The notes under the pieces are model-generated. The model ran no database searches. It saw only the letters and a list, made by a program, of their open reading frames with translations, and was not told the DNA's origin. From IMG/VR virus record IMGVR_UViG_3300045988_151684, positions 1 through 64,000 of that record: a stretch of 64,000 nt of DNA. The stretch is one strand, 5' to 3'. A program made the translations under genes and the position numbers. Below, in pieces: positions 34,019 through 57,843 of the stretch (position 1 is the first letter of the stretch; each line of letters opens with the position of its first letter). The stretch is from a virus.

Positions 34019-34019
34019 T

Positions 34020-34169: not shown

Positions 34170-34182
34170 ACTTTCACCATTT

Positions 34183-34581
34183 TTACTTGCTATTTACTTT
34201 GAACCCGATAGTATTGTCATTCTGTGGCTCTATCACTGTATTGTTAACTATTGAATACTTGCCGCTGCTTTCCTTAGTGATTTGTATTATTGGCAGCATT
34301 TTGGTCCCATCACCTGCCTCATCAAAATATATACCATCATTTTTCATCACCATACGGGCTTCACTGTCATTATCAAACAATATACTTACTGAATTATTAG
34401 CTAAAAGTTCAATATTACGTGTTGGATCGGATGGAATACTTATATCATTATATCCATTAAACAATACTCCATTTATTTTTGCACCAGGTGTTAACTGCCT
34501 AGCAAATGGTGCCATAAAATACGCCTGCATTTGTGCAATTATATATTTAATATTATCCAATGTTATTAAAGATTCAGCCAT
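34183..34581 (-). CDS. hypothetical tail-module protein
   Basis: AT-rich block, co-oriented. Confidence 0.4.
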   Translation of the reverse strand: MAESLITLDNIKYIIAQMQAYFMAPFARQLTPGAKINGVLFNGYNDISIPSDPTRNIELLANNSVSILFDNDSEARMVMKNDGIYFDEAGDGTKMLPIIQITKESSGKYSIVNNTVIEPQNDNTIGFKVNSK

Positions 34582-34586
34582 TTTAA

Positions 34587-35630
34587 TTAACCTCCAATAA
34601 AATTTATTTTAAATTCACTTTTTATAGGAACATATTTTTTATCTTTCTTAAAAATTATTTTCCCCGTATCAGCATCATAAGTAGCGGTCATTTCATCATA
34701 ATCATATCCGTTTTCATAAAGACATTTTCCGCTCAATGAATGTTCCAATTCTGCAATCATGTTAATTTTAAATTTTTTATAAAAATCATAACTATTCCAT
34801 TCATCTATATTACATGTACATACAATAGTTCGAGTAGCTGGTGTATAATCACTACCATATGTATATAATTCCATATTAATATCAATGGTTTCTTCTTTAT
34901 TAGCTGGCGCTGCTGATATTTGATTGTCTATTATTTTTTTTATTACCAATAAATCATTAAATGTTATTTTAATTTTTTTATAGTAGTATTCATTACACTC
35001 TAATTCTATATCATACCAAGTAGGCTTTATTACTATTGGAACAGTCCCATATGCATTTAGATTTTTTACGCTAGATGCTTCAAACATCATTTTACCGCCA
35101 TATTTTGTAGCCCAGTCTTTTACTGATAACATATTTAACGTCCAAGGAAATATTTGTGGCAAGCTGCGGCATCCGCTAAACATCAAATAAAAATTTTGAC
35201 ATTTTGATGTATCAAATTCAGATAATTTTTGTAATTTTTGACAATCATAAAACATCGCTTCTGCACTACCAAGCAAAGGTGTTTTTAAACCATTTATTGA
35301 AATCAGTTCCGTGCATCCATCAAAACAATGATTAGCACTAATAGCATTGCTTAAATCCAAATTATCTATATTCTTTAATGCTGAACATCCTTTAAACAAC
35401 TCATCAGCACATGTTAATTTAGAATAATCTATATCATACGGTATTTCTGTCATTGATTTATATGTATCTGGATATAAATCAATCATTCTATAGCCAGTTT
35501 TTTCAAGCAAATAACTTTTATTTGTTTGCGTTGTCTTTAACAATTCCTTGGTGTCTTGTGTTACTGATTTATTTAAAAATTTACTTTTAATATTATTAGC
35601 TTGACCATGGCTTAATATTTTATTTCCCAT
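34587..35630 (-). CDS. BspA-type leucine-rich-repeat (LRR_5) tail-associated protein
   Basis: repeats F.GC..L..I......N...MF..C..L. Confidence 0.5.
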   Translation of the reverse strand: MGNKILSHGQANNIKSKFLNKSVTQDTKELLKTTQTNKSYLLEKTGYRMIDLYPDTYKSMTEIPYDIDYSKLTCADELFKGCSALKNIDNLDLSNAISANHCFDGCTELISINGLKTPLLGSAEAMFYDCQKLQKLSEFDTSKCQNFYLMFSGCRSLPQIFPWTLNMLSVKDWATKYGGKMMFEASSVKNLNAYGTVPIVIKPTWYDIELECNEYYYKKIKITFNDLLVIKKIIDNQISAAPANKEETIDINMELYTYGSDYTPATRTIVCTCNIDEWNSYDFYKKFKINMIAELEHSLSGKCLYENGYDYDEMTATYDADTGKIIFKKDKKYVPIKSEFKINFIGG

Positions 35631-35642
35631 TATATCACCTGC

Positions 35643-35963
35643 TTATTGATATACATTTAATGGAACTTTTTTGCCCTGTATGTTGCAATTTTGCATATAT
35701 TCATATATTTCGCTATTTCCTTCAATATGCACATTATCTAATATGCCATCATAAACTGTTTGCCGTGCATAATATCGTCTATCTGCTTTTATAATTTGTT
35801 TAATACTACCATCAGATATTACACCATGTATTATTTCATTATCCATATTTAAATCGCTATTAGCTGTTATAACAAATTCTCCTTTTTTATAACAGTTGCT
35901 TTTCAAATATGATACTAACTGCTTTATATCATCAATTGTTGCCCATTTATCAGCCATTTTCAC
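35643..35963 (-). CDS. hypothetical protein
   Basis: ORF. Confidence 0.35.
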   Translation of the reverse strand: MKMADKWATIDDIKQLVSYLKSNCYKKGEFVITANSDLNMDNEIIHGVISDGSIKQIIKADRRYYARQTVYDGILDNVHIEGNSEIYEYMQNCNIQGKKVPLNVYQ

Positions 35964-36523
35964 ACCTTCACACGTCCATTAATTATAATCATATTTAAAC
36001 TTGTCCCCAAATTATCAGCGGTCATATTTGCTATTAATGAATCTGGTACATCTTCAAATCGTGCAATTGTTACGCTGCTTCCTGAAAATATGCCCTTTAT
36101 ATTATCTATTCTTTCATCTATGCTTTTACATGATATAATCCATGGGAAAACTCCTGGTAATGATGAACAATCTTTAAACATATCTGCTAATGATACCGCA
36201 TTAGATGTATCTAGCCAATTTATATTTTTCAATTTAGCGCAGCCAGAAAAAGCTGCTTTATAATTTATCACCTTATTCCTTCGAAACTTCGTTATTACAT
36301 CATCTGGCAATAAATTTATGTTATTGTATGAATCGGTATAATTATTTGACATATAATTAGTTGCATCAATATCCGTAATATTTTTTAATGATGATAATAC
36401 GTTATCTAGGTCTTCTTTAGTTGCATGATTACTATAATCTTTTTTTAATAAATAGGTTGCTTTAGTTTTTTTAGCTAATTCATTTATGGCTTCGCTGCCA
36501 ACCAACTTTATATTACTTGCCAT
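35960..36523 (-). CDS. BspA-type LRR tail-associated protein
   Basis: AFSGCAKLKNI...MFKDCSSL repeat units. Confidence 0.45.
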   Translation of the reverse strand: MASNIKLVGSEAINELAKKTKATYLLKKDYSNHATKEDLDNVLSSLKNITDIDATNYMSNNYTDSYNNINLLPDDVITKFRRNKVINYKAAFSGCAKLKNINWLDTSNAVSLADMFKDCSSLPGVFPWIISCKSIDERIDNIKGIFSGSSVTIARFEDVPDSLIANMTADNLGTSLNMIIINGRVKV

Positions 36524-36534
36524 TTTATTCTCCT

Positions 36535-36984
36535 TTAAAACAAGGCATCAACTTCAGCAGCAGTCATATATTCCACTGTAGATCCATCAGGCATTATTTG
36601 ATTCCCCTCATCAACCGCTAATACAATTACTTTTGACAAATATTTATCCGAATCAGGTATAATTTCTTGAATTTCATTTGATGGTACACATATTTTTTCT
36701 TGTACGGTGACAGCAGCATTAACTTGGTTACTGCTGCCACCTTGGTTAAAATCCACTACATTAATTACCGCTTCCGTTCCTGCTCCATCTATTGCTCTAG
36801 CATAAACAGTTCCTGCAAACGGTATTTTCTGCCCTGATAACAGGGGTATGCCTTCCCCTTGCTTTGCATCTGATGAACTAGTTAATTCCACATTATCACG
36901 TCCAGCATTATAAATTGTGCCAGCAGTTTCAGTAATTTTTTGTAACTTAGGTGTTAATACATATTGCTTAGCCATTTTCATCAC
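36535..36984 (-). CDS. hypothetical tail protein
   Basis: ORF. Confidence 0.35.
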   Translation of the reverse strand: MMKMAKQYVLTPKLQKITETAGTIYNAGRDNVELTSSSDAKQGEGIPLLSGQKIPFAGTVYARAIDGAGTEAVINVVDFNQGGSSNQVNAAVTVQEKICVPSNEIQEIIPDSDKYLSKVIVLAVDEGNQIMPDGSTVEYMTAAEVDALF

Positions 36985-38545
36985 CTTTTTGTTTCATTAT
37001 ATTTTTTGCCATTTGTCTTATTTTAGATTGACTAACTTGATTTATTCTAAAATTGTTTCCATAACCAACATAGCTATCAATTATTTGCACCTCAACGTCT
37101 TGTTTGCTTATATCAACTAAACTAAGGTCCTTTTGAGACATTACTAAATATATTCCATTAGCTACTTCTAAAATATCATTTGGAACTGTCATATTAGTTA
37201 ACCCTAAATAATCACAGGTTTTATATGGATATTTACCGTCAGCATTAAAAGTTACTGGTATACCATTTCCTTTTAAATCTTTTCCTATAGGTATAGTAAA
37301 ATCGTAATATTGGGGCTCTTCAAAATATTGTTCTTTATTATCCGGTATTGCAGGTGGTGGTGTTTTTGTATGCAAAATTTTAAAATATTTTTTAGTAACT
37401 ATTTCTTTTTTATCATCAGAATAAATTATTTTGTCATCTACTAATACAGATAAATTATAATTCCCTTCATTATTTTTTTCCCACGTAAACGGATTGCCCA
37501 CATCACCATCTAATTCTTCTTTACCAATATATCCAACAGCTAATTCATATTTCTCAGATGCTTCATATCTCGTGCTTATTGCTATTTCATTCAACTGTTT
37601 CTTTTCATAATAAAGATGCCTATGCGTGGTACCACCGCTAATATGGGTTCTCCGTATTACACGTATGTTCTTAAAAATGCTTCTGTTATTATATTTAATA
37701 TCATCTAATGCTGTGTCTTTAGCTTCATCAGGTATAATAGGTCCAACAGTTTCAGTATTTATGCACTCACCTTCTATATATGTGAGCCTATCTGTATATG
37801 CATAAACAGGATAATCTGAAACAACTTTATAATTTGATATTACTAGTTCCACTTTCTCATCTTGATATTCACCACTCCCCTCATCCGCAAATGCATAATA
37901 ACATCCACCTTTGTTATCTATATATACTGGTTCTGTCACTTGAGGAATAATTTTTTCTGCTACATCATTCTTAAAAATCACACATCCTGGAATATACCTA
38001 TCTCCATTATAACCGCCAATGTAGGCAGTTATTAGATCTCCGTTATCTGTTATAGTTGCCATGTTAACATACGGATTATGAATTGTATATCCTCCTTTAT
38101 CATCATTTAGATAGTACCGTTGTAAATCTATTTTATTATCATTAATTATATCTATCCATTTTAATGATGTTCTGCCATTTTGCCACCAAGCATTATTATT
38201 ACCACACACCAATGTACTATATGGGGTAATACCAAAATTTTTTGTTTTAAAGTTTTTAATTCCCAGCCCATATAAAAAACCTCCCATATATGAGCTTATA
38301 TATGGATAATAATGTTCTCCCCACAACATACCACCACCGCTTCGAGCTTCCAATCCATATATATATTTACCATCTGTCCAAACCGTATCACCTGGAACGA
38401 AACTACGATTACCTGTAAAAATTAATTTACTGCCATTAGTAGTTATTCCTTTTCCTTCGGATATTTTTGCCAATGTTTCGCGGTATACCATTATAATTAT
38501 ATTCCTCCACCAATTATTGCTACCCCTGATGGGGTTGGCAGACAA
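36968..38545 (-). CDS. putative receptor-binding / tail fiber protein
   Basis: 525 aa, beta-rich, distal position. Confidence 0.4.
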   Translation of the reverse strand: MSANPIRGSNNWWRNIIIMVYRETLAKISEGKGITTNGSKLIFTGNRSFVPGDTVWTDGKYIYGLEARSGGGMLWGEHYYPYISSYMGGFLYGLGIKNFKTKNFGITPYSTLVCGNNNAWWQNGRTSLKWIDIINDNKIDLQRYYLNDDKGGYTIHNPYVNMATITDNGDLITAYIGGYNGDRYIPGCVIFKNDVAEKIIPQVTEPVYIDNKGGCYYAFADEGSGEYQDEKVELVISNYKVVSDYPVYAYTDRLTYIEGECINTETVGPIIPDEAKDTALDDIKYNNRSIFKNIRVIRRTHISGGTTHRHLYYEKKQLNEIAISTRYEASEKYELAVGYIGKEELDGDVGNPFTWEKNNEGNYNLSVLVDDKIIYSDDKKEIVTKKYFKILHTKTPPPAIPDNKEQYFEEPQYYDFTIPIGKDLKGNGIPVTFNADGKYPYKTCDYLGLTNMTVPNDILEVANGIYLVMSQKDLSLVDISKQDVEVQIIDSYVGYGNNFRINQVSQSKIRQMAKNIMKQKGDENG

Positions 38546-38766
38546 TATACCAACACACCATTTTTTAATATAATATCTTTACTAGCTAATGAACAATTAT
38601 ATAATTTATCATTAATAACTACTTTCCCATTATAATATATCCCCTGTTTTGCTGTTGTATTTTTCATCGATTTTATTCGCTGCATTTTTAAGTTGTTTTG
38701 TTGAATTACATTTTTTATTCGATGCACTTTATTGTTTAAATAATTCAAGCTGCTCATTATTTCCAC
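38497..38766 (-). CDS. hypothetical protein
   Basis: ORF. Confidence 0.3.
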   Translation of the reverse strand: MEIMSSLNYLNNKVHRIKNVIQQNNLKMQRIKSMKNTTAKQGIYYNGKVVINDKLYNCSLASKDIILKNGVLVYCLPTPSGVAIIGGGI

Positions 38767-40739
38767 CTCACTAATACTAAGGATTGTTTTAATTCTTTTG
38801 GTGATATTGATACATTGTTGCTAACAAGATAATATTCACATCCTGCTAAAATAATTTTATCTCTAAAATCTATAATATGTTTGTATTCAGAAATTCCATT
38901 ATTCACTGATGTTATTAAATCTAAGGTAACAGTTTCTTTAATCCTTTGATTACAGTATTCCGATATTTCCTTAAAATATTTATTATTAAGTGAACTGTCT
39001 TCTATTGAAAATGGTAATGTATCATTTTCCTCACTTGAATAATACGTATTGGAATTACCATAAGTATCATTTAGCTGGTATAAATACCAGCTATGGTGTT
39101 CCCCTACTGATGGAGTAATTATTATGCTATGGGATATATTATTTAAACCTGTTACATTATTAGTATTAGCTATTGCATTTTCAATAACACCACTTATATC
39201 GCTTTTTGATGTTATAGCATGACGATGGCCTAGATCAGTGTGATATACGTTATATGAATCATTTTTTTTACCATTCTTTAATACTGTATGATTTTCATTA
39301 ATCTGTCTAGCATTTGTATTATAATCAAACTTTATAACCTCCTGTGATCCATCCGCATTATTTATAATTTGCATGGCTGGTCTATTATATATATCATAAA
39401 TTATTTCATTATCAGCACTGCCCGTTTCAAAATATAGCAAATTACCATTATCATCGTTATCACCATCTTCAAAATCGAAATCTATATTTACATCATAACC
39501 AACATCTTTGTTTAACAATATTGCCATAGTTTTATAAATCATTATTGGTTCCTGTTGAATTACTGGTCTAGTATGCGGAATGTCAGTAATATCTACTATA
39601 TTTATTTCATGACCTCGTTGTAATGCATATATTTTTTTATTACGTATAAATACATTTATTTGATGCCAGGGTATTTCCTTGCTCCAGCTAAAAAAATTAC
39701 TGATCAAATCAATACATGTAGCACTTTGATTAGCACATCCATTAGATGGTGTAAAATCATCGAACATTATTACCGGTTCCAAACCTAATATATTGGCTAA
39801 ATATTTAAAATGTACACTTGCTTTAGCGGTTGGTTCTCTTTTAGAATCGTCAACACCTCCAGACACACCATAATTTAGTGTTGTATGACCGCCAATATTA
39901 CCACCGCCTGTAACTATATGCGGTTCACTTGGTGAAGTATCTCTATAAATTACAATTTTTCCATTTTTATCAAAATCAGGATAACGAACAAGTGAATGTG
40001 TCAATATTTTCCAAGCCGTCGTTGACGTTATTGATAGTTTCTTGTCTGTTATTGATGTTGTTTTTACCATAAAATCATAATAATAATCCAAAATATTACC
40101 ACTTATTCTATCTTTAGGTAACATTGAACCAAACATCAAATCCATACTTATATTATCATTAATTGTATTTTCTTGTATGCTAATTGCTGCATTTATTAAC
40201 CGCATTCCTTTTGGCTGAACAACTTGACCATTTTGCCACGATATATTTTTTAATGCCTGTGCTAAAGTATCAAATTTTATTTCAATCGAACCATTTTGAA
40301 TTACTTTCGTTGAAAAATTCCACTTTGTCAAATATCCTTGCTTACGAAATGTATCCGATGATAAACTTATATGTTTGTATACATAACGTTTTAAATCAAA
40401 ATCACTAACTATGCTTATATATTGTGCTAAATCTCTTTGAACATCATATGAAATAGTCATTGTCTTATCTATAATTCGTTTTGCAATGCTATTATTTATT
40501 TCAAAATTACTAATATAACGTTTTATATCATATTGAACAGCTATTGCTGTTCCAATAGATAAGTCTCGTTTAGTTGCATAATAAGCCTGCAACGACTTTT
40601 CAACATTACGTTGTATATAATAATTTTCATCTATAGTTATAGCGTTGTCTGCAATTATATACGCATATAACGATATTGATGATATATCCGCTTTTTGTTT
40701 TCTACAATTTGCATAACTAATGAACGACAGATTCGCCAT
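38757..40739 (-). CDS. tail-associated (Tal-like) baseplate protein
   Basis: 660 aa, position after Dit-like. Confidence 0.45.
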   Translation of the reverse strand: MANLSFISYANCRKQKADISSISLYAYIIADNAITIDENYYIQRNVEKSLQAYYATKRDLSIGTAIAVQYDIKRYISNFEINNSIAKRIIDKTMTISYDVQRDLAQYISIVSDFDLKRYVYKHISLSSDTFRKQGYLTKWNFSTKVIQNGSIEIKFDTLAQALKNISWQNGQVVQPKGMRLINAAISIQENTINDNISMDLMFGSMLPKDRISGNILDYYYDFMVKTTSITDKKLSITSTTAWKILTHSLVRYPDFDKNGKIVIYRDTSPSEPHIVTGGGNIGGHTTLNYGVSGGVDDSKREPTAKASVHFKYLANILGLEPVIMFDDFTPSNGCANQSATCIDLISNFFSWSKEIPWHQINVFIRNKKIYALQRGHEINIVDITDIPHTRPVIQQEPIMIYKTMAILLNKDVGYDVNIDFDFEDGDNDDNGNLLYFETGSADNEIIYDIYNRPAMQIINNADGSQEVIKFDYNTNARQINENHTVLKNGKKNDSYNVYHTDLGHRHAITSKSDISGVIENAIANTNNVTGLNNISHSIIITPSVGEHHSWYLYQLNDTYGNSNTYYSSEENDTLPFSIEDSSLNNKYFKEISEYCNQRIKETVTLDLITSVNNGISEYKHIIDFRDKIILAGCEYYLVSNNVSISPKELKQSLVLVRWK

Positions 40740-40740
40740 A

Positions 40741-41565
40741 TTAACTTCCCTCGCTCGTTATAACAATTTTTTCTTTATCTATAGCTGTAAATACAGTTTG
40801 CTTTTCAGTTGTTAATCCAATTTTTTTTGATATTTCATTGGCTTGAACCGTTAAGCCGGTTACATCACCACCACCAGCAACATTAAATATTGCTTGTAAA
40901 CAATCAATATTGTACCCCTTTAGTTCATCAATATTCTCTGGTGCTGCCAACATTATTTTTTTATTAATATTATCTGTTTCATAGCTGCTATCATCTTTTA
41001 AAATCCAGTCAGTAGTTATTGTTGGCTTTATTTTTACAATTTTATCATTAAAGTCAATTTTACTATCTGAAATTATAATCATTTTAAAATCATATCTATA
41101 TTTACTATATGGATCACATATTAATAGTTTTGTAATTGATTCATCAGCTAGATAATTACCATTCAATGATACTACCGGTGAATCATCTCCTGCTTGTTTT
41201 ATGACAAAAACACCATCTGTACCACTTTTTATATGAATAATAATATCAAGATTTTTTGTATTTAAAACAAATGGTTCAGAACTGATTTTATCATCGGTTT
41301 TTATCACCCAATTTAAAGAATTTGCATTACACGATATTATTATTTGATGATTAGCGGACTGAAACGATATTATGTCTGTATCAAAACCACCAGTATAATA
41401 TTCTGCTTTAACTCTCACCCAATATTCTTTTTTATTTTCACTAACCAGGTCCAAAACAGGCGCATTAACCAACTTATATGGCAATGCTAATGAGTTGGTT
41501 CTTTCAAAAACATCTGTATAATCATCAAAAAAATATTTACTATTTATCGTAAATTTTTTAAACAT
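40741..41565 (-). CDS. distal tail protein (Dit-like)
   Basis: size/position downstream of TMP. Confidence 0.4.
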   Translation of the reverse strand: MFKKFTINSKYFFDDYTDVFERTNSLALPYKLVNAPVLDLVSENKKEYWVRVKAEYYTGGFDTDIISFQSANHQIIISCNANSLNWVIKTDDKISSEPFVLNTKNLDIIIHIKSGTDGVFVIKQAGDDSPVVSLNGNYLADESITKLLICDPYSKYRYDFKMIIISDSKIDFNDKIVKIKPTITTDWILKDDSSYETDNINKKIMLAAPENIDELKGYNIDCLQAIFNVAGGGDVTGLTVQANEISKKIGLTTEKQTVFTAIDKEKIVITSEGS

Positions 41566-41582
41566 AAATTATCCTCATTCAC

Positions 41583-41993
41583 TTATACAGCCTTGATTTT
41601 TGTTGTTATTCTAATATTAGTTGAACTATCAATGACTGGATCTTCATCAGCTGTTGATAGTGCTTTAATATATAATATTTTATTGGTTTCATTTATTGAA
41701 TCTCTAATGATTAATGAACTTTCAAACGAACTGTTTTCACTAGCAGATATTACCCATTTATTACTATTACTACCAACAAAAGTTATAGCTGTATTGCCTG
41801 TAGTAATAAACCCTGGTTCACACCGTACTGCTACTTTAACTGTCTTGCTTTCATTATTGGCAGCATCAAGTGTAATTTCTAATGGTGATGTTTCTGTATT
41901 ATCTGTAGATATTGGTATTCCGTCACTTCCGCCCTCTGTTACATCTCCCATGTATAAATTAATATATTTATTAGACATTTTATTCATCCTCAT
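41583..41993 (-). CDS. 136-aa tail protein, tandem paralog A
   Basis: paralogous to 41990..42400 (YINLY..TEG..DG...RCE....A.IT.V...W....SL....IN.TN.I). Confidence 0.45.
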   Translation of the reverse strand: MRMNKMSNKYINLYMGDVTEGGSDGIPISTDNTETSPLEITLDAANNESKTVKVAVRCEPGFITTGNTAITFVGSNSNKWVISASENSSFESSLIIRDSINETNKILYIKALSTADEDPVIDSSTNIRITTKIKAV

Positions 41994-42400
41994 TCATTTA
42001 CTAAAATCATTGCCTTTAACTGCAAAACAACTGACCTATCATTTTTAGGCAATGCTGCATCTGATTTCACTTTAACAAAAAAAATTGTATTCGTAGTATT
42101 TATTTCATCTTCAAATATCAAGCTCTTTTTAAATTCATCTGTTTCATTTTTAGCAAACAACCAATTAGTTTTATCATCATTGACAGCAGTTATAACTGCT
42201 CCTGGTGCTGCCTTCCACCTGTTTTCACATCTTAATCCCAGTTTTATATTTTTGCTTTCAAATTCACCTACATCCAAAACAACTTCCACTGGATTACTTT
42301 GTTCACCATTAAGACTAACTAATACTCCATCTAATGCGCCTTCTGTTGGATTGTTTTTATATAAGTTTATATATTGATTAGCTGCCATTATATTCTCCAA
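41990..42400 (-). CDS. 136-aa tail protein, tandem paralog B
   Basis: as above. Confidence 0.45.
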   Translation of the reverse strand: MENIMAANQYINLYKNNPTEGALDGVLVSLNGEQSNPVEVVLDVGEFESKNIKLGLRCENRWKAAPGAVITAVNDDKTNWLFAKNETDEFKKSLIFEDEINTTNTIFFVKVKSDAALPKNDRSVVLQLKAMILVNE

Positions 42401-42744
42401 ATTTCCAATGCTGCTTTTACTGCCTGCTTAGCATAATATTCTACATATTGCCAGTTTTTTATCACTATACGGCAATTTGATATTTTTTTCCCACTTTCAT
42501 CAGTTACAGTAACTAACGTCCTTGACTCCCATAATTGATAAATTTTGCTAAAATCTTCACTTCTAAAAGTCGTTGAAACTGTAATTTTATCCCCTGCTGT
42601 ATTGTGACCAAAATCTTGTACTACCGTTCCATCAATCACATCAATTCTAGTTTGCCGATCATCTGGTGTTATTTGCCATGATTCAGCTTTTCCAAGTGAT
42701 GATATATCATTTATTTGTAAAACTGCCAAAATACTCACCTTCAT
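42388..42744 (-). CDS. hypothetical tail protein
   Basis: ORF after TMP. Confidence 0.4.
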   Translation of the reverse strand: MKVSILAVLQINDISSLGKAESWQITPDDRQTRIDVIDGTVVQDFGHNTAGDKITVSTTFRSEDFSKIYQLWESRTLVTVTDESGKKISNCRIVIKNWQYVEYYAKQAVKAALEIWRI

Positions 42745-42745
42745 T

Positions 42746-45622: not shown

Positions 45623-45642
45623 TATTTTCTCCTTTATATAGG

Positions 45643-45815
45643 CAAAACATCATCAATAAATGCCTGTGTTGGTTCATTTTCTACTTTATCCATCACATAT
45701 ATCATTTCAAACAAATCTTCTAAATCAGTATCATCTATTTGTTTGATAGTCCAATGATATGTCTTAGCTAACTGACAATATAATGAAAGTGCTGTTTCAT
45801 GGGCGGTCAGCTTTA
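45643..45815 (-). CDS. tail chaperone -1 frameshift extension (GT-like)
   Basis: -1 frame open ~70 codons from chaperone stop to just before TMP start. Confidence 0.35.
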
Positions 45816-46118: not shown

Positions 46119-46175
46119 AAACGTTATCCTTTCTATGTAGAAAAAACAGACGGTAATTAACCGCCTGCTATATTA

Positions 46176-47140: not shown

Positions 47141-47572
47141 TTATTTGCTTCCTCGTCGTTTTGTAGCATTTTGAACTGCTTGAATAATTGAATTTCTTAC
47201 AGCCTGTTGATGTGCATCAAACGCTGGGTATAAAAACGGTTTATTTATTTTACTAGAAAATTCAACAAATAATCCATACGGCAGTCCTGATGTGCTACTT
47301 TTGGCATTAGCTTCAATATGATATACCGAACCTTCTTTTTTACCAACTGCTTTAATTGAAGCTTTTAAAGCTCCCGCCTCAACATCAGCTCTTGGTAAGC
47401 CGTTATATACTGGAACTCTATTTTTAGCATCCTCAGTAATTGTATTGACGCCCTGTTTTAAAGCTGCTTTAGCAGCTTTAACAACATTTACGCCAATTTC
47501 TTCTAATGCTTTTACTGCCTGAGCAACACCACGTACATCACCACGAGTAAAATCATTATAGCGTTTGGCCAT
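47141..47572 (-). CDS. HK97 gp10-like protein
   Basis: homolog of 8585..9037. Confidence 0.5.
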   Translation of the reverse strand: MAKRYNDFTRGDVRGVAQAVKALEEIGVNVVKAAKAALKQGVNTITEDAKNRVPVYNGLPRADVEAGALKASIKAVGKKEGSVYHIEANAKSSTSGLPYGLFVEFSSKINKPFLYPAFDAHQQAVRNSIIQAVQNATKRRGSK

Positions 47573-47987
47573 CTTCCACTAACTCCCTACAATCAATGAC
47601 TAGCCATATATGACGATTCTCGGCATCATATGGCGGTGATACTATTTGTAATTTTTTTGACCGCCAAAATATTATATCGTCCGTTTTAATATTTTTACGA
47701 TAACGGATTATTATCCTGTAATATATTTCAGCTGATTTACTTGCCACATCATGACCATCCTTTGCAGCATATGGCAAAATTTTAGCCCAACAAGTGTAAC
47801 GCGTTTTCTCTGTACGACTAACGATGTCGCCAATTTCATCACGGCTATAGTCATAATAAAGAACCTTTATTCTCTCTCGTAAATCATCAAAAGAAGTTCC
47901 CTTTATGATACTTCCTTTACTAATCACAATTAATCCTCCGCAAAATTCTGTAACTGCGAAATCATCGAACGTATAAAATATGGCCAT
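47556..47987 (-). CDS. head-tail adaptor
   Basis: homolog of 8265..8585. Confidence 0.5.
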   Translation of the reverse strand: MAIFYTFDDFAVTEFCGGLIVISKGSIIKGTSFDDLRERIKVLYYDYSRDEIGDIVSRTEKTRYTCWAKILPYAAKDGHDVASKSAEIYYRIIIRYRKNIKTDDIIFWRSKKLQIVSPPYDAENRHIWLVIDCRELVEDGQTL

Positions 47988-48226
47988 TCAGTGCGACTAT
48001 CATTATGTGAATCTCTATTAGAATACATTTCCGCTATTAACGCATATAACAACATATTAGCTTCAGGCTCAAATTTATTGTTTTTCATAAGTTGTTCAAA
48101 ATTATCTATTGAATTTTTGCAATAACTTTCAGCAGATACTATACATTGTTGCAAAAACGCATCATCATGAGTAATATCATCATCTATGCGCAAATAATTT
48201 TTTATTCCACTTAAATCAATTGCCAT
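47930..48226 (-). CDS. head-tail connector
   Basis: homolog of 7866..8258. Confidence 0.55.
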   Translation of the reverse strand: MAIDLSGIKNYLRIDDDITHDDAFLQQCIVSAESYCKNSIDNFEQLMKNNKFEPEANMLLYALIAEMYSNRDSHNDSRTEWPYFIRSMISQLQNFAED

Positions 48227-48243
48227 AATTTCAGTTAACCTTC

Positions 48244-49371
48244 TTATGCAGTCGTAACAGCGTATGCCTTCATTGCATTCACATCATCAGCTACTACATC
48301 AAAACGTTCAACACAACGTAAGGCTGTCGCATATTTATCAAAAAGAAAATCTTGTGATACCGCTATTTCTATTCCCTGACGTTCAAAAAATGCTGCATAA
48401 TCTGCCAACGAACCAACATAGAATGGTATTTTTTTGGCGGTAGTAGCTAATGTATTGTTCGGTAATACAACAATTTCCTTTCCTCTAAAACGATATGTAT
48501 CTGGTGCAGCAACATCCGGCAATAATAAAGGGCGATTCTGACCATCTTCCAATTCTGATAACCACTGAAAACCATCCTGATTAGTGATAATTTTTGCATT
48601 AGCATAATAAGCTGGATCAATATCTACATTTAACGCTTTTACCAAATTTTTATAACCTGTTAGCGCAGTTGATGATAATTTAGCCAACAGCTTTAATATT
48701 TCAGCATTTTCCGTATTTACTGCTTTTCTAGCAAACCGTTTACCAATAATATCTACAATACTTACATCTGCATCCGCTAACAGCTGATTTGATACTGGAA
48801 TGATATCACCGTAATCTTTGATTTCATACTTCAATTGACCAAAATCAAAATCAGACTGTGTTATACTATTAAGTTCTTCAAAAGCAGTAAGCAAACCAGA
48901 TTCATCACCAAGTGTTGGCATTTTCCCTGATAAACTATTTGCATTTTGAACATGTGTAAGCTGCTTTATTGCAGTATATGCTTTTCTGTATTCTCGTATA
49001 GTTGCCAATTGCTCCTCAGGCACCAAATAGCCGCCCTTATTCGGTGTCCCAGCAACCTGTCCCGGCGAACCAATTGTATTAGCTATTTCTTTTTCATCGT
49101 CATTAAGCTTATGCCCTAATACCAGCTTATTAAATACTCGATTTTTTAATTTAACATTATTCACATGCCTTCCATTCACAGGAGCAGCATTTTTGGTAAA
49201 ATTGGTCATTGCTGCTGCTTCCATAGCTTTTGCTGTATGGTATTTGTTTACTGTCTCTGTTAATTCCGTGCTTAGTTTTGCTGCATCAGAATACTTTTAA
49301 TTCTGTTGCAGTTGTTCTATTTTTCCAGTCAATTCATCTACAACTTTTTTCAATTCATCAGATTTTTTCAT
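48244..49371 (-). pseudogene. major capsid protein gene interrupted by in-frame TAA (49297..49299) after codon 25
   Basis: reading from ATG 49371: MKKSDELKKVVDELTGKIEQLQQN-stop-KYSDAAKLSTELTETVNKYHTAKAMEAAAMTNF... aligns colinearly with intact prophage 1 MCP, which has DEQ at that point. Confidence 0.55.
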
Positions 49372-50111
49372 TTCAACATTGCTCCTTTCGCAAGTGCCAA
49401 AGCTATTTCAGCTTTGTATTTATCATTATTTTTATCTAACATTGTTTTTTTCAATGCCATTTTTTGTTGTTGCACTATTTCATAAGGGATTTTGGTTTTA
49501 TTCATATAATTCAAGCCTTTGCCTGCACATGCAGCTACTTGTATTGGTTCAGTTTTATTTATATTGAATATTTTAGACGCTTCGTCACCAGTTAACCATG
49601 TTTCTGACTCTACCATAGAATGTATTTTTTCAGCTGTTATTCCATCTAAAGCGCAATTTATATAAATTTTTTCAAGTCCGTCTTGAATTGTGTCAAGGAT
49701 TTCCGCCATTTTTTTCATATCATTAGAATTACCACTACTATATGCGGATGGTTTATGTATCATTAAATATGTGTTGCTTGGCATTTCTCGCTCATCTGCT
49801 GAAAAAAATATTTGTGTTGCTATACTGCAACACCAGCCTTCAACAATTGCCTTGGTATGACCATCATGATTATGTATCATATTCGCAATTGCTACTCCTG
49901 CCGGTACACTGCCACCGTCAGAGTTAATATATATCGTTAAATCTTTTCCTTGTAAATCATCCAGTTGTTTACGAATTTTTTCAGGCCATTGATATCCTGT
50001 GGTATTGCTATACCATTCTTCTATGCAACCACCATTATCATCATCTATTATATTTCCACTAATAACTATTTCCGCACTATCATTAGTTTGATTTTGGATT
50101 CTTATCCCCAT
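49368..50111 (-). CDS. ClpP-like prohead protease
   Basis: IYINSDGGSVPAGVAIANMI...IATQIFF.ADER..PSN.YLMIHKPS. Confidence 0.85.
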   Translation of the reverse strand: MGIRIQNQTNDSAEIVISGNIIDDDNGGCIEEWYSNTTGYQWPEKIRKQLDDLQGKDLTIYINSDGGSVPAGVAIANMIHNHDGHTKAIVEGWCCSIATQIFFSADEREMPSNTYLMIHKPSAYSSGNSNDMKKMAEILDTIQDGLEKIYINCALDGITAEKIHSMVESETWLTGDEASKIFNINKTEPIQVAACAGKGLNYMNKTKIPYEIVQQQKMALKKTMLDKNNDKYKAEIALALAKGAMLK

Positions 50112-51339
50112 TGCTTTTCACCTCGTTGTTTTCATACGCTTTTCCTATATCTTCTAATTTCACATATGAACCATTAACCATATGCACATCACCGCCTATA
50201 CATGGCGGTATATCTAAACGGTCACGAGCTTCATTGACGCTATACACTGATGATTGAACCATTTTTTGCAAAACATCTGCCTGTTGCTGCGGATCACCGC
50301 GTAATATTGTCCAAACATTGAATTTAAATCCTAATCCAGCTAATTGTTCTTTTTTAGTTAATAATTTTCTATTCATTTCCTGCTCATAAATTGTGACATT
50401 ATATAGCAAGGTATTAACATAAAATTGCAAATTTTGCATAGCACTATTGTTATAACTTGATTTTGTATAATCATTTAGATGATCTGGATTTACCCCAAAA
50501 GCAGCTGCTATCTGTAATGCATTGTATTTGCGCAATTCATAAAACTGTGAATCGGTCAATTTTAAATCAATTGGCTGAATATCAAAACCTACGGGTAAGG
50601 TAATCATGCGCCTAGCATCATCCCGGGATTGTTCATCAATCCTTTTTAAAAGTTTTCTTTGTTCAATACTATTTAAATCACCAACATATTTAACCACGGC
50701 ATTAGCCGTTAGCCCATGACTATATAAATTGGTTAAAAATTCTTGGGCAGCCTTATTGCCTGCCATATTTGCGGCCAATATCTCTCGTACTGATTTTCCA
50801 ACATAACAACCATTTTCAGTAATCCACGCTTTGACGTGTAACATATTTTCAGGATCTATCCAAAAATCTTTACCGGAACCACTATCAAAATAACGATAAT
50901 AATACTGCCGTTTTGTATAATCAGCTGTATTATTAACCCAAACTTGAACCTTTTGTGGATCAAGTAAATGCAATCCCTTTAAAATAGAATTTTCCCGCTC
51001 AATATACGCATAACCATTGCCATAATGGTTGCGACAATATTCCAATCTAGAAAAAAATTGTATTGGTGTCATTATTTTATTTGGTGCTATGCTAAAAATT
51101 GAAACAGTTTCATGATGGCTTATTCTATTCTTTTCCTTATCAATTAGATAAACTGGCATTTTTCCCAAATTTTCAGCTAACGTTTTTAAACATGTAAAAT
51201 AAGTTATTTCAGCTAAATCCGGACCACCAATTTTATTTTTTGATGCAAAAAATAATTCATTTATATCATTCAAAGAAATATTAGCTGTCATATTATTTAT
51301 TTTTCTTTTAAGCAACGTCAATATACTAATCTTCCTCAC
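50083..51339 (-). CDS. portal protein
   Basis: homolog of 4750..6006. Confidence 0.9.
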   Translation of the reverse strand: MRKISILTLLKRKINNMTANISLNDINELFFASKNKIGGPDLAEITYFTCLKTLAENLGKMPVYLIDKEKNRISHHETVSIFSIAPNKIMTPIQFFSRLEYCRNHYGNGYAYIERENSILKGLHLLDPQKVQVWVNNTADYTKRQYYYRYFDSGSGKDFWIDPENMLHVKAWITENGCYVGKSVREILAANMAGNKAAQEFLTNLYSHGLTANAVVKYVGDLNSIEQRKLLKRIDEQSRDDARRMITLPVGFDIQPIDLKLTDSQFYELRKYNALQIAAAFGVNPDHLNDYTKSSYNNSAMQNLQFYVNTLLYNVTIYEQEMNRKLLTKKEQLAGLGFKFNVWTILRGDPQQQADVLQKMVQSSVYSVNEARDRLDIPPCIGGDVHMVNGSYVKLEDIGKAYENNEVKSNGDKNPKSN

Positions 51340-53074
51340 CTTCTTTCTCAGTGATTTCCAGCCACTCAGCTAAAGCAGCATGACCATCAACTGTATCACT
51401 TTTTTGTGAAAACCATACTTTCCAAGCATCTATAATGGCATCTACACAATCAATACGATTTGTTTGTGTCATCTTATCAATTTTTATCTCACCAAATGAA
51501 TTAGGTGCTGAAATAATTGCATTTACAGCGCTCCATGTCATTAATGCATTTTGTTTATCATACATTACTTGCCCAGATTTAACAGATAACTGAAAATCTT
51601 TTGTAACATCATTTAATGACCGTGCTGACTGCTTAATCTCAGTTAAATCACAATCCAAAATTTGTTCCAAATCTTCTAAAAAGGCACTGGCATTATGCGC
51701 ATCATAACCACATCCTATTATTTTTAAATGATATTTGTTTATCATATTATTTAATTCTGAAATGATATGCTTATAATCTGTTTTTATGCCATACATGCCA
51801 GATGTAAGCGTCAATAAACCTGCATTTTTCCACATTCCATACGGTGCATCATCTGACTGTATATGTTCAGCCAAACGTAACTCTGGCATATAACTATGTG
51901 AGTATAAATATATCCTTGACTGCTCCAGTGGGAAAAGCAACGCTATACTTGTTAAATCACCGCCACTAGATAAATCTATACCTAAAAAACATTCCTTGCC
52001 TTCCATGTCAGAAATTTTTTTATTAGCGCCGCATCGCTTCCAGCACTCTAAATCCAGTAACGCACCGCCTGTATATGTTACCCAGCGGTTTAACGATTTG
52101 GTTTGAAAATTAACTAATTCATTTCCTTGTTTTTCCTTTGCATCTATTGCCTTTTCAGCCATTCGTGCAACCATTTGCTTATTGATAGTATCATCATCAT
52201 TCCATAGATACAGCGGATTTGCTTTAGCCCAATTTTCTGGCAGCCAAATATCATCATCTTGATCCATTTCAGCAATATATATAAATAGCGATTCTTTTTT
52301 TACATTTCCTGTCAACACTTTTTTGCAATATTGATATTGCTCATAGCATGGACCATTAAGATTAAATCCAGCCGTTGTAATCGCTAGCGTCAAAGCATTA
52401 TCAACCAAAATTTGACCATCATTTACTAACTTGTACATCTGATTGGTTGGATGCGCATGATATTCATCAACAATTGCTAGTATTGTTCTAAAACCATCTG
52501 CGCTTTTAGTGTCTCTGCCAATAGCTTTTATAACTGTTCCAGTTATACGTGATGTAATAACATGATCGTATTTACGGATTGTATATAATTCAGCTAGGTC
52601 TGAATCTGATTCAATAAATTTTTGCACATCTTCCCAAACAATATTAGCCTGGTCCTGTTTAGTAGCTGTACAAAATATCCGCCCATAATTATATCCTCCA
52701 AATGTAGCAAAATCATTGCATAATTCACCAGCTATAAATGATTTACCATTTTGTCGTCCCATTTGGATATAACCCTCACGAAAGCGACGCAATTTACTAC
52801 GTTTTTTTCGCCAGCCAAATAAGCTTCCAATTATAAAATTTTGAAAACCTCTTGTTTTTAACGGTTTCGGACTGCCTTCACCTATTGTCAATGTATTTGC
52901 TATAGCTATATGACGCTCTGCTTGTTTAACATCAAAAATATATTCAAAATTTTTATTTTCCATGTCATTAAGATGACGTTTACAAGCTAAATACTCAGCA
53001 CGACCACATATTTTTTTACCACTTATTATTTTTTTTGCGTATTCAGTAGTTAAGTCTTTCATCACACATAGCAA
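51326..53074 (-). CDS. terL: terminase large subunit
   Basis: 582 aa, high identity to 3011..4753. Confidence 0.9.
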   Translation of the reverse strand: MLCVMKDLTTEYAKKIISGKKICGRAEYLACKRHLNDMENKNFEYIFDVKQAERHIAIANTLTIGEGSPKPLKTRGFQNFIIGSLFGWRKKRSKLRRFREGYIQMGRQNGKSFIAGELCNDFATFGGYNYGRIFCTATKQDQANIVWEDVQKFIESDSDLAELYTIRKYDHVITSRITGTVIKAIGRDTKSADGFRTILAIVDEYHAHPTNQMYKLVNDGQILVDNALTLAITTAGFNLNGPCYEQYQYCKKVLTGNVKKESLFIYIAEMDQDDDIWLPENWAKANPLYLWNDDDTINKQMVARMAEKAIDAKEKQGNELVNFQTKSLNRWVTYTGGALLDLECWKRCGANKKISDMEGKECFLGIDLSSGGDLTSIALLFPLEQSRIYLYSHSYMPELRLAEHIQSDDAPYGMWKNAGLLTLTSGMYGIKTDYKHIISELNNMINKYHLKIIGCGYDAHNASAFLEDLEQILDCDLTEIKQSARSLNDVTKDFQLSVKSGQVMYDKQNALMTWSAVNAIISAPNSFGEIKIDKMTQTNRIDCVDAIIDAWKVWFSQKSDTVDGHAALAEWLEITEKEGEED

Positions 53075-53078
53075 CTAC

Positions 53079-53543
53079 CTATAGGTATTTCAAATACTTA
53101 TTTACCGTTTTTTCTTCTTTAGTTGGAACAATTAATTTCAATCGATCCGTTGTAGCTAATCCTAGTTTCGTACTGCATTTCATTATTTGAGTCGCTGAAT
53201 CATTAGCAATTCGACAATAAGCCGATGGTATTTCTCCAACTTTGCCTTCTGTAGTCAAACCTTTTTCATTAAGTGATTTACTCGCAACGATATACCTGCT
53301 GTAATTATCTGCATAAATTGCCAATATTGATAAATCCAGGTTATCAAGCAAATTAACTTTAGCTGCTTCACGAACTACTCTATTATATTCATAAGCAGCC
53401 TCATCATTAAGCCACTTGGGAGCGCCTGTTTCTAATTGATCACGTCCGACTTTTAATTTGGATTCTTGCAATTCACGATTCATACGGTCTTTTTTACTTA
53501 TTTTACCGGTTGATATACCAATTACTTTTCTTGGTCTTGCCAC
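53079..53543 (-). CDS. terS: terminase small subunit (P27 family)
   Basis: GTG start MARPRKVIG after RBS AGGAGG + 8 nt; homolog of 2548..3027. Confidence 0.7.
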   Translation of the reverse strand: MARPRKVIGISTGKISKKDRMNRELQESKLKVGRDQLETGAPKWLNDEAAYEYNRVVREAAKVNLLDNLDLSILAIYADNYSRYIVASKSLNEKGLTTEGKVGEIPSAYCRIANDSATQIMKCSTKLGLATTDRLKLIVPTKEEKTVNKYLKYL

Positions 53544-53605
53544 ATGATTCACCTCCTACTAATGTATGTTCACTCAATGCGTATTTGCTTGCAGTTATAT
53601 CTATT

Positions 53606-53654
53606 GGCATTTTTGGCATTTTTCCAAAATAAAAGGGGGAGCGCGCTCCAACTA
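53606..53654 (-). promoter_or_regulatory. direct repeat GGCATTTTT x2 (contains AAAAATGCCAAAAA) and palindrome GGGAGCGCGCTCCC followed by T-run upstream of terS
   Basis: seen in sequence; motif shared with prophage 1 position 2514..2526. Confidence 0.4.
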
Positions 53655-53661
53655 GTAAATA

Positions 53662-54081
53662 CTAAAACTTTTTTCGCCTTCCCCTGGCAGTAACAATATC
53701 TATAAGCTTAGCTTGCAATAATTTCTTTTCGTTTCCTTCTTTTTTATAAATATCATGGACCTTTTTATGATTCTTGCGTGATAAAAAAATAAGATTATTT
53801 ATATCAAGTGCTTTGTCCGGTTTTTCTTCCAGTGTATATATGTGATGTACTATATTTCCAGCCTGATATTGTTTTGATTCTGCCATAACCAATTCATCAG
53901 CACCGTGTGCTATTATCTTTATTTTTTCAACTATCTTTCGCCATGCTAAACTATGATAAAATTTATTTTTTTTCTGATCACGTTTCTCATTGTTATACTG
54001 ACGTTGCCGTAAGCTAACGCATGGGCAAGTTACACCTTGTGGTAGTTTACGGCCACATGCGCTACATATGGTCATAAGCAC
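53662..54081 (-). CDS. HNH endonuclease
   Basis: CxxC...CxC, HHI motif; homolog of 2016..2426. Confidence 0.75.
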   Translation of the reverse strand: MLMTICSACGRKLPQGVTCPCVSLRQRQYNNEKRDQKKNKFYHSLAWRKIVEKIKIIAHGADELVMAESKQYQAGNIVHHIYTLEEKPDKALDINNLIFLSRKNHKKVHDIYKKEGNEKKLLQAKLIDIVTARGRRKKF

Positions 54082-54182
54082 ATTATATTCACCTTCCCTC
54101 TATTCATTTTAGATAATAAGCCTAAATAACTATCTCGGCATTAAATATAGTTATCCTTATTGAAAATAATAGCATTGATTGG

Positions 54183-54593
54183 CTAGTTTAAGGTGCTGCC
54201 TTTTAATCGCAAATGCATTTCAATTATTCGATTTATTATTTGCCGCCACCACTCTTTTAATGTTCTTTCAGCAAATAAACAACGAGCATTAATAAAACGT
54301 TTATTTATTTCCTCTGCATATCGTCTTTGAACATATGCTGTCCAAGCGTGCCGCCCACGGCCATTTGTTTTCTTGCCTTCTGCTTCTTGACGTACCATAA
54401 TAAATATTCTTTTTCGTTCACCGTATGTTCGCAAGGTTAAATCTATAGCCTGCAACCACTCATTATCTTTAATATTTTTATCCACTTGGGTTTGGTAAAT
54501 ATCATAATTTAGAATATACTTAGCTGCCATTTTACGATCTTCCCGCATTTGTTTAACAATTTCTTGCGCATTGTCATACTGATATTTTTTCAT
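54183..54593 (-). CDS. ArpU/RinA-like late transcriptional activator
   Basis: start MKKYQYD with RBS AAAGGGGA; homolog of 1350..1856. Confidence 0.45.
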   Translation of the reverse strand: MKKYQYDNAQEIVKQMREDRKMAAKYILNYDIYQTQVDKNIKDNEWLQAIDLTLRTYGERKRIFIMVRQEAEGKKTNGRGRHAWTAYVQRRYAEEINKRFINARCLFAERTLKEWWRQIINRIIEMHLRLKGSTLN

Positions 54594-54657
54594 AATTTCC
54601 CCTTTTATGTAATACGTGTTTATAAAACTCCTTGGCAATAGTCAGTTTTTGAAATCT

Positions 54658-54686
54658 CCTTGACAATATAGGATAAAACATATATT
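54658..54686 (+). promoter_or_regulatory. promoter TTGACA-17-TATTAT with direct repeats (TATAGGATA x2; TCCTTG.CAATA x2)
   Basis: seen upstream of HigB-like gene. Confidence 0.45.
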
Positions 54687-54725
54687 ATATCTATAGGATA
54701 TATCACATATTATCAAGGAGTAACA

Positions 54726-55082
54726 ATGTCAGATTTTGAAGTCAGTTTCTATACTTGCCACGATGGCGGCAAGCCTGCTAAAGATTTTATCCTTGGTCTG
54801 GATAAGAAGATGCGTACCAAAATGTTACGCACCATCGAAATTCTTGAAGATAAGGGCAATCTGCTCCGTGAGTCATATTCTAAGCATTTAGACGATGGTA
54901 TCTTTGAACTTCGTGCCAAAGTCGGCAGCGATATTTCACGGGTGCTATATTTCTTCGTGGTAAACCACGAAATTATACTCTCCCACGGCTTCATCAAGAA
55001 AACTCAAAAGACACCACCTGCCGAAATCGAACGTGCAAAAAAGAACCGTAAGGACTATTTGGAAAGGATGACTGACAAATGA
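54726..55082 (+). CDS. RelE/HigB-like (Gp49/DUF891-type) toxin
   Basis: ...ELRAKVGSDISRVLYFFVVNHEIILSHGFIKKTQKTPPAEIERAKK pattern; followed by HTH gene with ATGA overlap. Confidence 0.65.
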   Translation: MSDFEVSFYTCHDGGKPAKDFILGLDKKMRTKMLRTIEILEDKGNLLRESYSKHLDDGIFELRAKVGSDISRVLYFFVVNHEIILSHGFIKKTQKTPPAEIERAKKNRKDYLERMTDK

Positions 55083-55357
55083 GCGAATTTAGGGATTTTC
55101 TCAATAAACAACTGCAAGATCCAGAAATTAAGGCCGAATATGATGCTTTAGAACCGGAATTTGCCATTATTCGCGCCATGATTGATGCACGGGAACGGCA
55201 GGGCATAACTCAAAAGGAATTAGCCGCCCGCACCGGCATTGCGCAGGCCGATATAAGCAAACTGGAAAACGGCAACGCCAATCCATCCATCAAGACTCTT
55301 AAACGCCTGGCATCCGGCCTTGGTTGTCGCCTAAAAATTGAATTTGCAGCCCTATGA
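55079..55357 (+). CDS. XRE-family HTH antitoxin (HigA-like)
   Basis: GITQKELAARTGIAQADISKLENG HTH; coupled to upstream toxin. Confidence 0.65.
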   Translation: MSEFRDFLNKQLQDPEIKAEYDALEPEFAIIRAMIDARERQGITQKELAARTGIAQADISKLENGNANPSIKTLKRLASGLGCRLKIEFAAL

Positions 55358-55384
55358 GGAAAGGCCTTTGCAGAATTTGATATG

Positions 55385-55440
55385 ATACCTCTAAAGTAGA
55401 TAAGGTAAATAACTAAAATCTACTTTGGAGGTATTTTTAT
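55385..55440 (+). terminator. long hairpin (16-bp stem, 1 mismatch) followed by TTTTTAT; coincides with GC-composition junction
   Basis: ATACCTCTAAAGTAGA ... TCTACTTTGGAGGTAT. Confidence 0.5.
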
Positions 55441-57842: not shown

Positions 57843-57843
57843 G

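Follow-up and report, generated by a model that had tools for sequence, protein, structure and literature searches.

Temperate tailed phages are known for their modular mosaicism, as expressed in Botstein's module theory and in mosaic genomes of the Hendrix type, and it has long been known that the arms of coliphage lambda differ in their guanine plus cytosine (GC) content. Here we analyzed a stretch of 64,000 nucleotides of viral DNA (positions 1 to 64,000 of the IMG/VR record IMGVR_UViG_3300045988_151684), called the window below, which consists of two prophages lying tail to tail and contains no chromosome. Prophage 1 occupies positions 1350-28618. Our subject is prophage 2, a temperate siphovirus with an estimated genome of roughly 37 kb, and in particular its AT-rich block of 26 genes (34135..54725, minus strand, 20.6 kb). 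As in classical mosaicism, whole functional modules are swapped where genes or operons meet, the nearest relatives differ from module to module, and the composition is segmental. What sets prophage 2 apart is that its compositional step is large and clean (0.16 at the left junction), that the known composition of the host gives the step an orientation, and that the virion module is the host-like one. Prophage 2 is an unusually clean case of classical phage mosaicism, and its value is that of an example, not of a discovery.

For Streptomyces phages of cluster BI and related clusters, a mismatch to the host in GC content as well as in codon usage was read as incomplete adjustment after movement between hosts (bioRxiv 10.1101/842583). 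The whole genome of those phages is mismatched and lies below the host, while in prophage 2 one arc is mismatched and lies above it. Selenomonadaceae-related genomes cover a wide range of GC; those set beside a gut isolate of 35.5% GC lie as much as 17 GC points away from it (PMC10491768), which makes such GC contrasts plausible within the group. A search of the literature on Selenomonas, Anaerovibrio or Megamonas prophages turned up nothing relevant to the prophage 2 phage. Among 50,697 deposited phage records, the best match to its large terminase subunit (TerL) is Fusobacterium phage phiHugo (OR492275.1), with 61.5% identity over 98% of the query. The host genus of phiHugo is low in GC, but its TerL is much more distant than those of uncultured relatives at 74-79%, and it has no DNA-level match to the block. 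A megablast search with the block and the early arm against the same 50,697 phages returned no match.

The first-pass annotation of the window had described an AT-rich morphogenesis block in a GC-richer prophage 2 and had suggested sliding-window GC and codon-usage plots as a check. The block was borne out by GC windows, change points and the GC content at third codon positions (GC3), and the composition is clearly not uniform, with two sharp change points. In 1-kb windows, GC is 0.28-0.39 between 34 and 55 kb and 0.42-0.56 in most of the remaining window (p = 3e-10, Mann-Whitney test). Next to the block it is 0.42-0.48 before the drop and returns to 0.44-0.47 beyond 55 kb. A two-segment maximum-likelihood scan placed the left change point at 34134, with a 2-log-likelihood support interval of 34112-34149, and the right one at 54757, with an interval of 54712-54854. 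Overall, GC is 0.330 in the block, 0.447 and 0.446 in the two arms of prophage 2, and 0.477 in that part of the window which belongs to prophage 1. Outside the block, prophage 2 averages about 45% GC, and not the 48-50% or so given earlier. All 26 block genes have a GC3 of 0.16-0.29, and the flank genes mostly have 0.43-0.61, with a single short open reading frame (ORF) at 0.37. Intergenic DNA follows the same pattern, with GC of 0.32 in the block and 0.41 in the flanks. The largest step from one 3-kb window to the next reaches 0.16 for the left junction and 0.11-0.125 for the right one. For comparison, the largest steps within 72 other phage loci (each at least 12 kb long) have a median of 0.054, a 95th percentile of 0.105 and a maximum of 0.132; the left step exceeds all of these loci and the right step exceeds their 95th percentile. 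The sequence character changes abruptly at both ends of the late operon, as in a mosaic genome.

The left end of prophage 2 directly adjoins the chromosome in two related loci (L002 and L008), where the chromosomal GC is 0.36-0.40 and the adjoining genes encode a metallo-beta-lactamase-fold protein, DAHP synthase, a GGDEF protein and CsrA. The locus was also found unoccupied (L033; 21 kb, 18 genes, GC 0.371, GC3 0.29) and, with GC of 0.369, on a 355,477-bp contig with both prophages, immediately left of the prophage 1 integrase. Source databases assign the proteins of this locus to metagenome-assembled genomes (MAGs) named 'Selenomonadales bacterium' or 'Selenomonas sp.', and the best named homologue of the DAHP synthase (86%) is from an Anaerovibrio sp. 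MAG. A TerL search of genome contigs gave the MAG 'Selenomonadales bacterium HGM14095' as its sole match. The host is an uncultured human-gut Selenomonadales bacterium of about 37% GC. The first-pass annotation had taken about 50% GC as the normal baseline and was misled by a window made up of two prophages alone; the host chromosome that shares the contig with them has 37% GC and a GC3 of 0.29.

Against this host, the picture is reversed. The prophage 2 backbone (about 45%), the prophage 1 late genes (about 48-50%) and a prophage remnant at the same chromosomal site (L032, 47-53%) all lie above the host in GC, and prophage 1 and the non-block part of prophage 2 exceed it by 8-13 points. Phages usually tend to be AT-richer than their hosts, so prophages that are GC-richer are a mildly surprising aspect of this system. 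The correlation of relative synonymous codon usage with the host is r = 0.85 for the AT-rich block, 0.35 for the prophage 2 flanks and 0.15 for the prophage 1 late genes. By a per-gene codon log-likelihood ratio, all 26 block genes are host-like, and 20 of the 23 flank genes are prophage-1-like. A purely generic low-GC effect was ruled out as the source of the codon match between block and host by a control of 11 other low-GC phage loci (GC3 0.15-0.37), which reach r = 0.39-0.77 with this host. The signature of a foreign AT-rich island was not found in the block, with GC of 0.33 vs 0.37 in the host and the codon correlation just given; the deviation lies with the flanks. What looks native is the AT-rich block, and the remainder of prophage 2 together with prophage 1 are the outliers.

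The two modules of prophage 2 have different nearest relatives. Its TerL belongs to a tight group of at least 99% identity, and every member of which the context was read sits in this mosaic. Below that group come HK97-type relatives at 79%, 76% and 74% identity, and the first two of these are in contigs of 55% and 48% GC. Low-GC relatives are more distant, at 63% (GC 0.32) and 59% (GC 0.28), where 63% is the maximum in IMG/VR. A generic low-GC Firmicute phage, which had been suggested as the source of the block, is not supported by these values, with at most 63% for low-GC TerL relatives vs 74-79% for the nearest ones, which lie in contigs of 47-55% GC. Across about 55 loci of the TerL family, TerL has GC values between 0.28 and 0.58, and the composition within any one phage is uniform, with an upstream-downstream GC difference of at most 0.08. 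The amino-acid composition of the prophage 2 TerL is more AT-biased than that of any of its 120 best relatives. The block thus seems to represent a branch of this phage family with a long history of low GC rather than something brought in recently from a distant low-GC phylum.

On the other hand, the early module has its closest relatives in phages of 56-57% GC (L014 and L128-L131), which adjoin host DNA of about 60% GC. These are collinear with prophage 2 from Rep to HNH, with 54-74% amino-acid identity (Rep 68-74%, ParA 73%, ParB 61-70%, zinc-ribbon protein about 60%, HNH 71%), and the homology stops at about window position 56186. In the shared genes, their GC3 is 0.69-0.78 vs 0.47-0.54 in prophage 2. 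Unlike prophage 2, they join this early module to a lambda GpA-type terminase (PF05876), Phage_portal_2, an S78 protease-capsid fusion and a serine recombinase. Such joining is direct evidence for reassortment of early and late modules in this phage group.

The mosaic recurs in other samples. The exact lysin (32795-33409) and antitoxin (55079-55357) of prophage 2 were traced to numerous independent metagenome contigs, NCBI MAG records and Logan assemblies. In each of the 20 retrieved loci, the same tail genes precede the lysin and the same late genes border the antitoxin. Eighteen loci, from 16 different samples and several pipelines, have 92-100% per-kilobase identity to the window across both junctions, and contig ERZ27229810 k119_174146 is 100% identical to it. 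Therefore, the arrangement is not an assembly artefact, and since both junctions are common to all sampled copies, the exchange predates the spread of the prophage 2 phage. No block module was found near-identical in another background in these large, non-exhaustive collections: all TerL proteins of at least 99% identity, and the exact lysin and antitoxin matches that were read, sit in the same mosaic. The 660-aa (amino acid) tail protein has no relative in IMG/VR, and hence no tail-gene donor was found there. Exact-protein look-ups of TerL (TTG start) and ParA gave no record, and the start codons chosen in the collections probably differ.

We account for these results by a recombination between two lineages. 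Prophage 2 is probably a fixed recombinant of a low-GC, host-equilibrated lineage, which contributed the late operon, and a GC-richer lineage, which contributed the lysogeny, replication, toxin-antitoxin and lysis functions. The circularised genome would consist of two arcs, namely the 20.6-kb AT-rich late operon and a GC-richer arc of roughly 16 kb with the lysis cassette, accessory genes, attachment site, integrase, repressor, Rep, ParA, ParB and a toxin-antitoxin pair. Because the GC-richer arms are contiguous in the circular form, one exchange with two crossovers at the operon borders would suffice for this arrangement. The late arc, including the host-recognition tail genes, would have had a composition in equilibrium with that of this host lineage, or of a closely related low-GC one, for a long time, since its GC3, intergenic GC, amino-acid composition and codon preferences track the host. 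The GC-richer arc is probably a more recent arrival, or may still be mixing with a GC-richer phage pool, since its closest relatives occur in phages of 56-60% GC hosts. The recombination event itself is something we infer, with no parent sampled; as to its direction, the composition makes us lean towards the AT-rich block as the long-term resident arc.

Several points weigh against this account. We met no parental phage, neither a wholly low-GC phage with the block nor the backbone with a GC-rich block of the HK97 type, and among 5.8 billion proteins there is no TerL of between 79% and 99% identity. The host composition was taken from a single chromosomal locus of about 21 kb (GC 0.369-0.373). 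The block GC3 of 0.22 is slightly below the 0.29 of the host, and the usual AT offset of phages or an origin in a lower-GC relative would fit equally. Finally, the GC3 of the GC-richer arc (about 0.47) lies between the host (0.29) and the nearest relatives (0.69-0.78), and this arc may not be a recent arrival.

The first-pass annotation had proposed a modular replacement of the structural genes by those of a low-GC relative. Its exchange at sharp module borders stands, but the host data are contrary to its polarity, in which a native phage of about 47-50% GC took a structural module from a low-GC (Firmicute-type) phage and the block is foreign. We regard that polarity as unlikely. It accommodates the mosaic structure and the sharp borders equally well, the closest deposited TerL (phiHugo, 61.5%) does come from a low-GC host, and the block GC3 of 0.22 is a little under that of the host. 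Nevertheless, the host has 37% GC, the codon match of the block (r = 0.85) exceeds the 0.39-0.77 of other low-GC phages, the low-GC TerL relatives reach no more than 63% compared with 74-79% in GC-richer contigs, and the nearest relatives of the backbone are in hosts of about 60% GC. It is still less probable, to the point of being hard to credit, that a single GC-richer ancestral phage changed unevenly in place, its highly expressed late genes shifting faster to the host codons. Stronger host codon adaptation has been described in phage structural genes, and the block TerL falls among GC-richer relatives, so that its low GC looks derived. However, the prophage 1 late genes keep a GC3 of 0.44-0.63 in the same host, while all 26 block genes have shifted, including the putative regulator and the HNH nuclease, which are unlikely to be highly expressed. 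The intergenic DNA has shifted too (0.32 vs 0.41), on the left the boundary can be placed to within about 40 bp, and the lysis genes are unshifted though apparently read through from the same late operon. As for a mis-assembly or an independent mobile element nested in the prophage, the assembly is of the metagenome type and has two prophages side by side, but we give either almost no weight: both junctions occur in the 18 loci from 16 samples and several pipelines, no flanking repeat of at least 11 bp and no recombinase in the block were found, and the phage minus its block would have no virion genes at all.

If prophage 2 is a recombinant of a low-GC and a GC-richer lineage, as we prefer, a wider and more doubtful possibility is that the replication-lysogeny backbone circulates among Selenomonadales genera from about 35% to about 60% GC and switches hosts by means of a locally adapted virion and host-recognition cassette. 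Were this so, prophage 2 would represent a cross-genus host shift with a readable direction, consisting of an immigrant backbone and a native cassette, and the presence of several prophages GC-richer than their 37% GC host would be explained. Two or more prophages 8-13 GC points above their host suggest phage gene flow across Selenomonadales genera that differ strongly in GC. The case also illustrates how local context can mislead, as the block looks foreign with respect to the window and native with respect to the host chromosome; tools that detect atypical composition would flag the wrong half of prophage 2. In this abundant human-gut prophage, the exchange unit is the entire late operon minus the lysis cassette, and it is delimited to tens of bases on the left and about 100 bp on the right.

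The left crossover would lie within or next to the 49-aa ORF 34020-34169, in the stretch from the last tail gene to the lysis cassette. No site resembling a terminator was detected in this stretch, so that late transcription probably reads through into the lysis genes. The right junction had been placed near a long hairpin at 55385-55440. Its actual position is about 54612-54725, in the intergenic region (54594-54725) that separates the first late gene from a toxin-antitoxin pair (54726-55357). The hairpin is about 650-800 bp outside the block, beyond this pair, which sits on the GC-richer side; the hairpin looks like the terminator of the toxin-antitoxin operon. At the right compositional junction, L039 and L043 carry a 656-bp insertion between window positions 54611 and 54647, with a gene (8915-9490, GC 0.35) for a 191-aa predicted membrane protein. 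In a related prophage remnant, homology to prophage 2 begins at 54655, with the lysis genes abutting the toxin-antitoxin pair. The insertions and this starting point indicate that the right border is an active exchange point in the population. The two junction regions share no word of at least 11 bp, direct or inverted.

The coordinates of the features are collected in Table 1. TerS (the small terminase subunit), TerL (PF03354), portal (PF04860), ClpP-type protease and capsid (PF05065) are present in the order of an HK97-like siphovirus module, and none of the 26 block genes encodes an integrase or transposase.

Table 1. Features of prophage 2 and of the prophage 1 head module, with positions in the window and, where available, identity to the prophage 1 counterpart (aa, amino acids; protein identities by blastp)
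Feature	Position	Strand	Evidence or remarks	Identity to prophage 1
First late-operon gene	54183..54638	-	136 aa (54183-54593) as called in related contigs	51% aa (gene 1350-1856)
HNH endonuclease beside terminase genes	53662..54081	-	phrog_144, E = 5e-21; weak Pfam HNH match	38% aa
Small terminase subunit (TerS), Terminase_4 / P27 family	53079..53552	-	PF05119, E = 4.6e-16	56% aa
Large terminase subunit (TerL)	51326..53074	-	PF03354 and PF20441; 578-579 aa as called in related contigs	72.7% aa over 576 aa, 66.8% DNA (TerL 3011-4753)
Portal protein	50083..51339	-	PF04860	63% aa, 63% DNA
ClpP-type prohead protease	49368..50111	-	PF00574	48% aa
Major capsid protein, HK97 type	48244..49371	-	PF05065; in-frame TAA at codon 25 in window copy	61% aa, 67% DNA
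Head-tail connector, head closure, HK97 gp10-like, tail completion, small ORF upstream of tape-measure gene	45813..48226	-	PF05135, PF05521, PF04883 on equivalent genes of L036-L045	
Tape-measure protein	42746..45622	-	958 aa; by size and position	34% over 240 aa (ORF 10674-14690)
Distal tail, baseplate and fibre genes, including two DUF285-like repeat proteins	34183..42744	-	About 8.5 kb; lowest-GC section of the block, 0.28-0.33	No homologues in prophage 1
Left junction, 49-aa ORF spanning change point 34134	34020..34169	-	ORF called in L003 and L008	
Right junction, 132-bp divergent intergenic region	54594..54725	.	11/12 sigma-70-like promoter towards toxin-antitoxin pair	
Hairpin	55385..55440	+	18-bp stem followed by U run; folding free energy -25.9 kcal/mol, z = -5.35	
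GC-richer left arm	28946..34134	-		
Lysis cassette, phrog_1863 protein	33752-34039	-		
Lysis cassette, small membrane protein	33568-33762	-		
GH25 lysin	32795-33409	-		
Left-arm accessory gene, HTH_59		-		
Left-arm accessory gene, SocA_Panacea	30303-30842	-		
Left-arm accessory gene, 266-269 aa protein		-		
GC-richer right (early) arm	54726..64000	-		
Gp49/HTH_37 toxin-antitoxin pair	54726-55357	+		
Right-arm HNH	56210-56560	-		
ParB	58559-59833	-		
ParA	59830-60654	-		
Rolling-circle-type Rep	within ORF 61170-62270	-	PF23343	
Second Gp49/HTH pair	62689-63322	+		
Prophage 1 head module (first late gene, HNH, TerS, TerL, portal, ClpP, capsid)	1350..7850	+	Syntenic with the block; GC 0.45-0.51	

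The first gene of the late operon is possibly a late regulator, to judge by its position upstream of the HNH and TerS genes. It has no family in Pfam or PHROGs, and NCBIfam gave only chance-level matches to unrelated families; the label 'ArpU-like' given to it in the first pass finds no support in these three collections. In the capsid gene, the stop codon at about 49297-49299 (minus strand) replaces a Glu found there in relatives. The gene is intact (375 aa) in 9 of the 10 copies retrieved, and L045, taken from a contig that fully matches the window, shares the short gene. It is possible that the window copy is defective, or that a Met further downstream serves as a second start of translation. 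One gene between the capsid and tape-measure genes is, by position, the probable major tail protein. For the prophage 1 counterpart of the tape-measure gene, the copy in L046-L048 has a weak Tape_meas_lam_C match. The gene of the 660-aa tail protein (38757-40739) contains patches of 86-92% DNA identity in L001, L002, L005 and L006, with GC of 0.27-0.38, while the block is otherwise 99-100% identical. These patches point to an exchange of alleles, or to diversification, within what is probably a receptor-binding region, and would imply a pool of related low-GC phages.

Prophage 1 and its relatives, for example L132 in a MAG labelled Selenomonas ruminantium, resemble prophage 2 in gene order throughout. 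The order common to both prophages is HTH_17, Rep (PF23343), ParA, ParB, first late gene, HNH, TerS, TerL, portal, ClpP and capsid. The head proteins are mostly 48-73% identical and the tail-tip genes are unrelated. The homology of the structural proteins had been noticed before, with TerL put at 70-75% by eye, and the blastp value falls within this range. DNA-level similarity is detectable only for TerL, capsid and portal, and the same codon is used at 34-41% of the residues conserved between the head genes. The proportion of synonymous differences in the head genes is 0.83-0.94, i.e. the synonymous sites are saturated; the synonymous divergence is therefore undefined and the ratio of nonsynonymous to synonymous divergence could not be computed. 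The early proteins of the two prophages are 27-38% identical. Together with the saturated synonymous sites, this rules out prophage 1 as the recombination partner. Within prophage 1, GC is 0.43 in the early region and 0.50 in the late region. Between its tail genes and an Amidase_3 lysin, prophage 1 carries genes for a 340-aa radical SAM protein together with a partner of 249 aa (24365-26133), whose GC of 0.41 is below the rest of prophage 1 and suggests accessory cargo.

From right to left, the early arm of prophage 2 contains a Gp49/HTH pair, HTH_17, Rep, a 180-aa protein, ParA, ParB, small genes, DUF4406, a zinc-ribbon protein, HNH, a 65-aa protein and the Gp49/HTH_37 pair. In related contigs, a 160-aa repressor and then a 367-aa tyrosine integrase are found just past the window end. 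The two Gp49 (HigB-like)/HTH pairs are both on the plus strand, one at each end of the early arm. For the pair at 54726-55357, the exact antitoxin occurs in 236 collection blocks, compared with 28 for the lysin. L038 and L041 (11723-15126) have an insertion in the early arm with genes for a 758-aa Peptidase_S8 protein and a 374-aa AAA ATPase; the GC step that it causes locally is 0.157, and the two genes may form a cassette for defence or accessory functions.

A 33-bp palindrome, ACTTCCGATAATTTATACTTATCGGAAGTTATG, is found at 28946-28978 of the window, at 11815-11847 of L032 and around 11821 of L033. It is directly downstream of the chromosomal metallo-beta-lactamase-fold gene and also lies between prophages 1 and 2; it is likely to be the attachment-site core of an integration hot spot. 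Depending on the contig, the hot spot is occupied by prophage 1, prophage 2, the remnant or a remnant of a P2-like myovirus (L135). A tRNA scan found none within the window or four related loci, so that the attachment site is not a tRNA gene and there are no phage tRNAs to offset the codon mismatch. The remnant at the same chromosomal site (L032 11897-13836, also L006 13419-14833 and L007 14230-15891) has a GH25 lysin and holin that abut a Gp49/HTH_37 pair, with about 79% DNA identity to window positions 32865-33598 and 54655-55396. It looks like prophage 2 minus the whole late operon, as either a deletion derivative or an element naturally without virion genes. The window has an extra segment of about 330 bp at 29123-29450 which is missing in L005 and L007. 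Also, a 59-bp inverted match of 88% identity connects an intergenic part of the left arm (30932-30990) with a segment to the right of the last prophage 1 gene (28776-28834).

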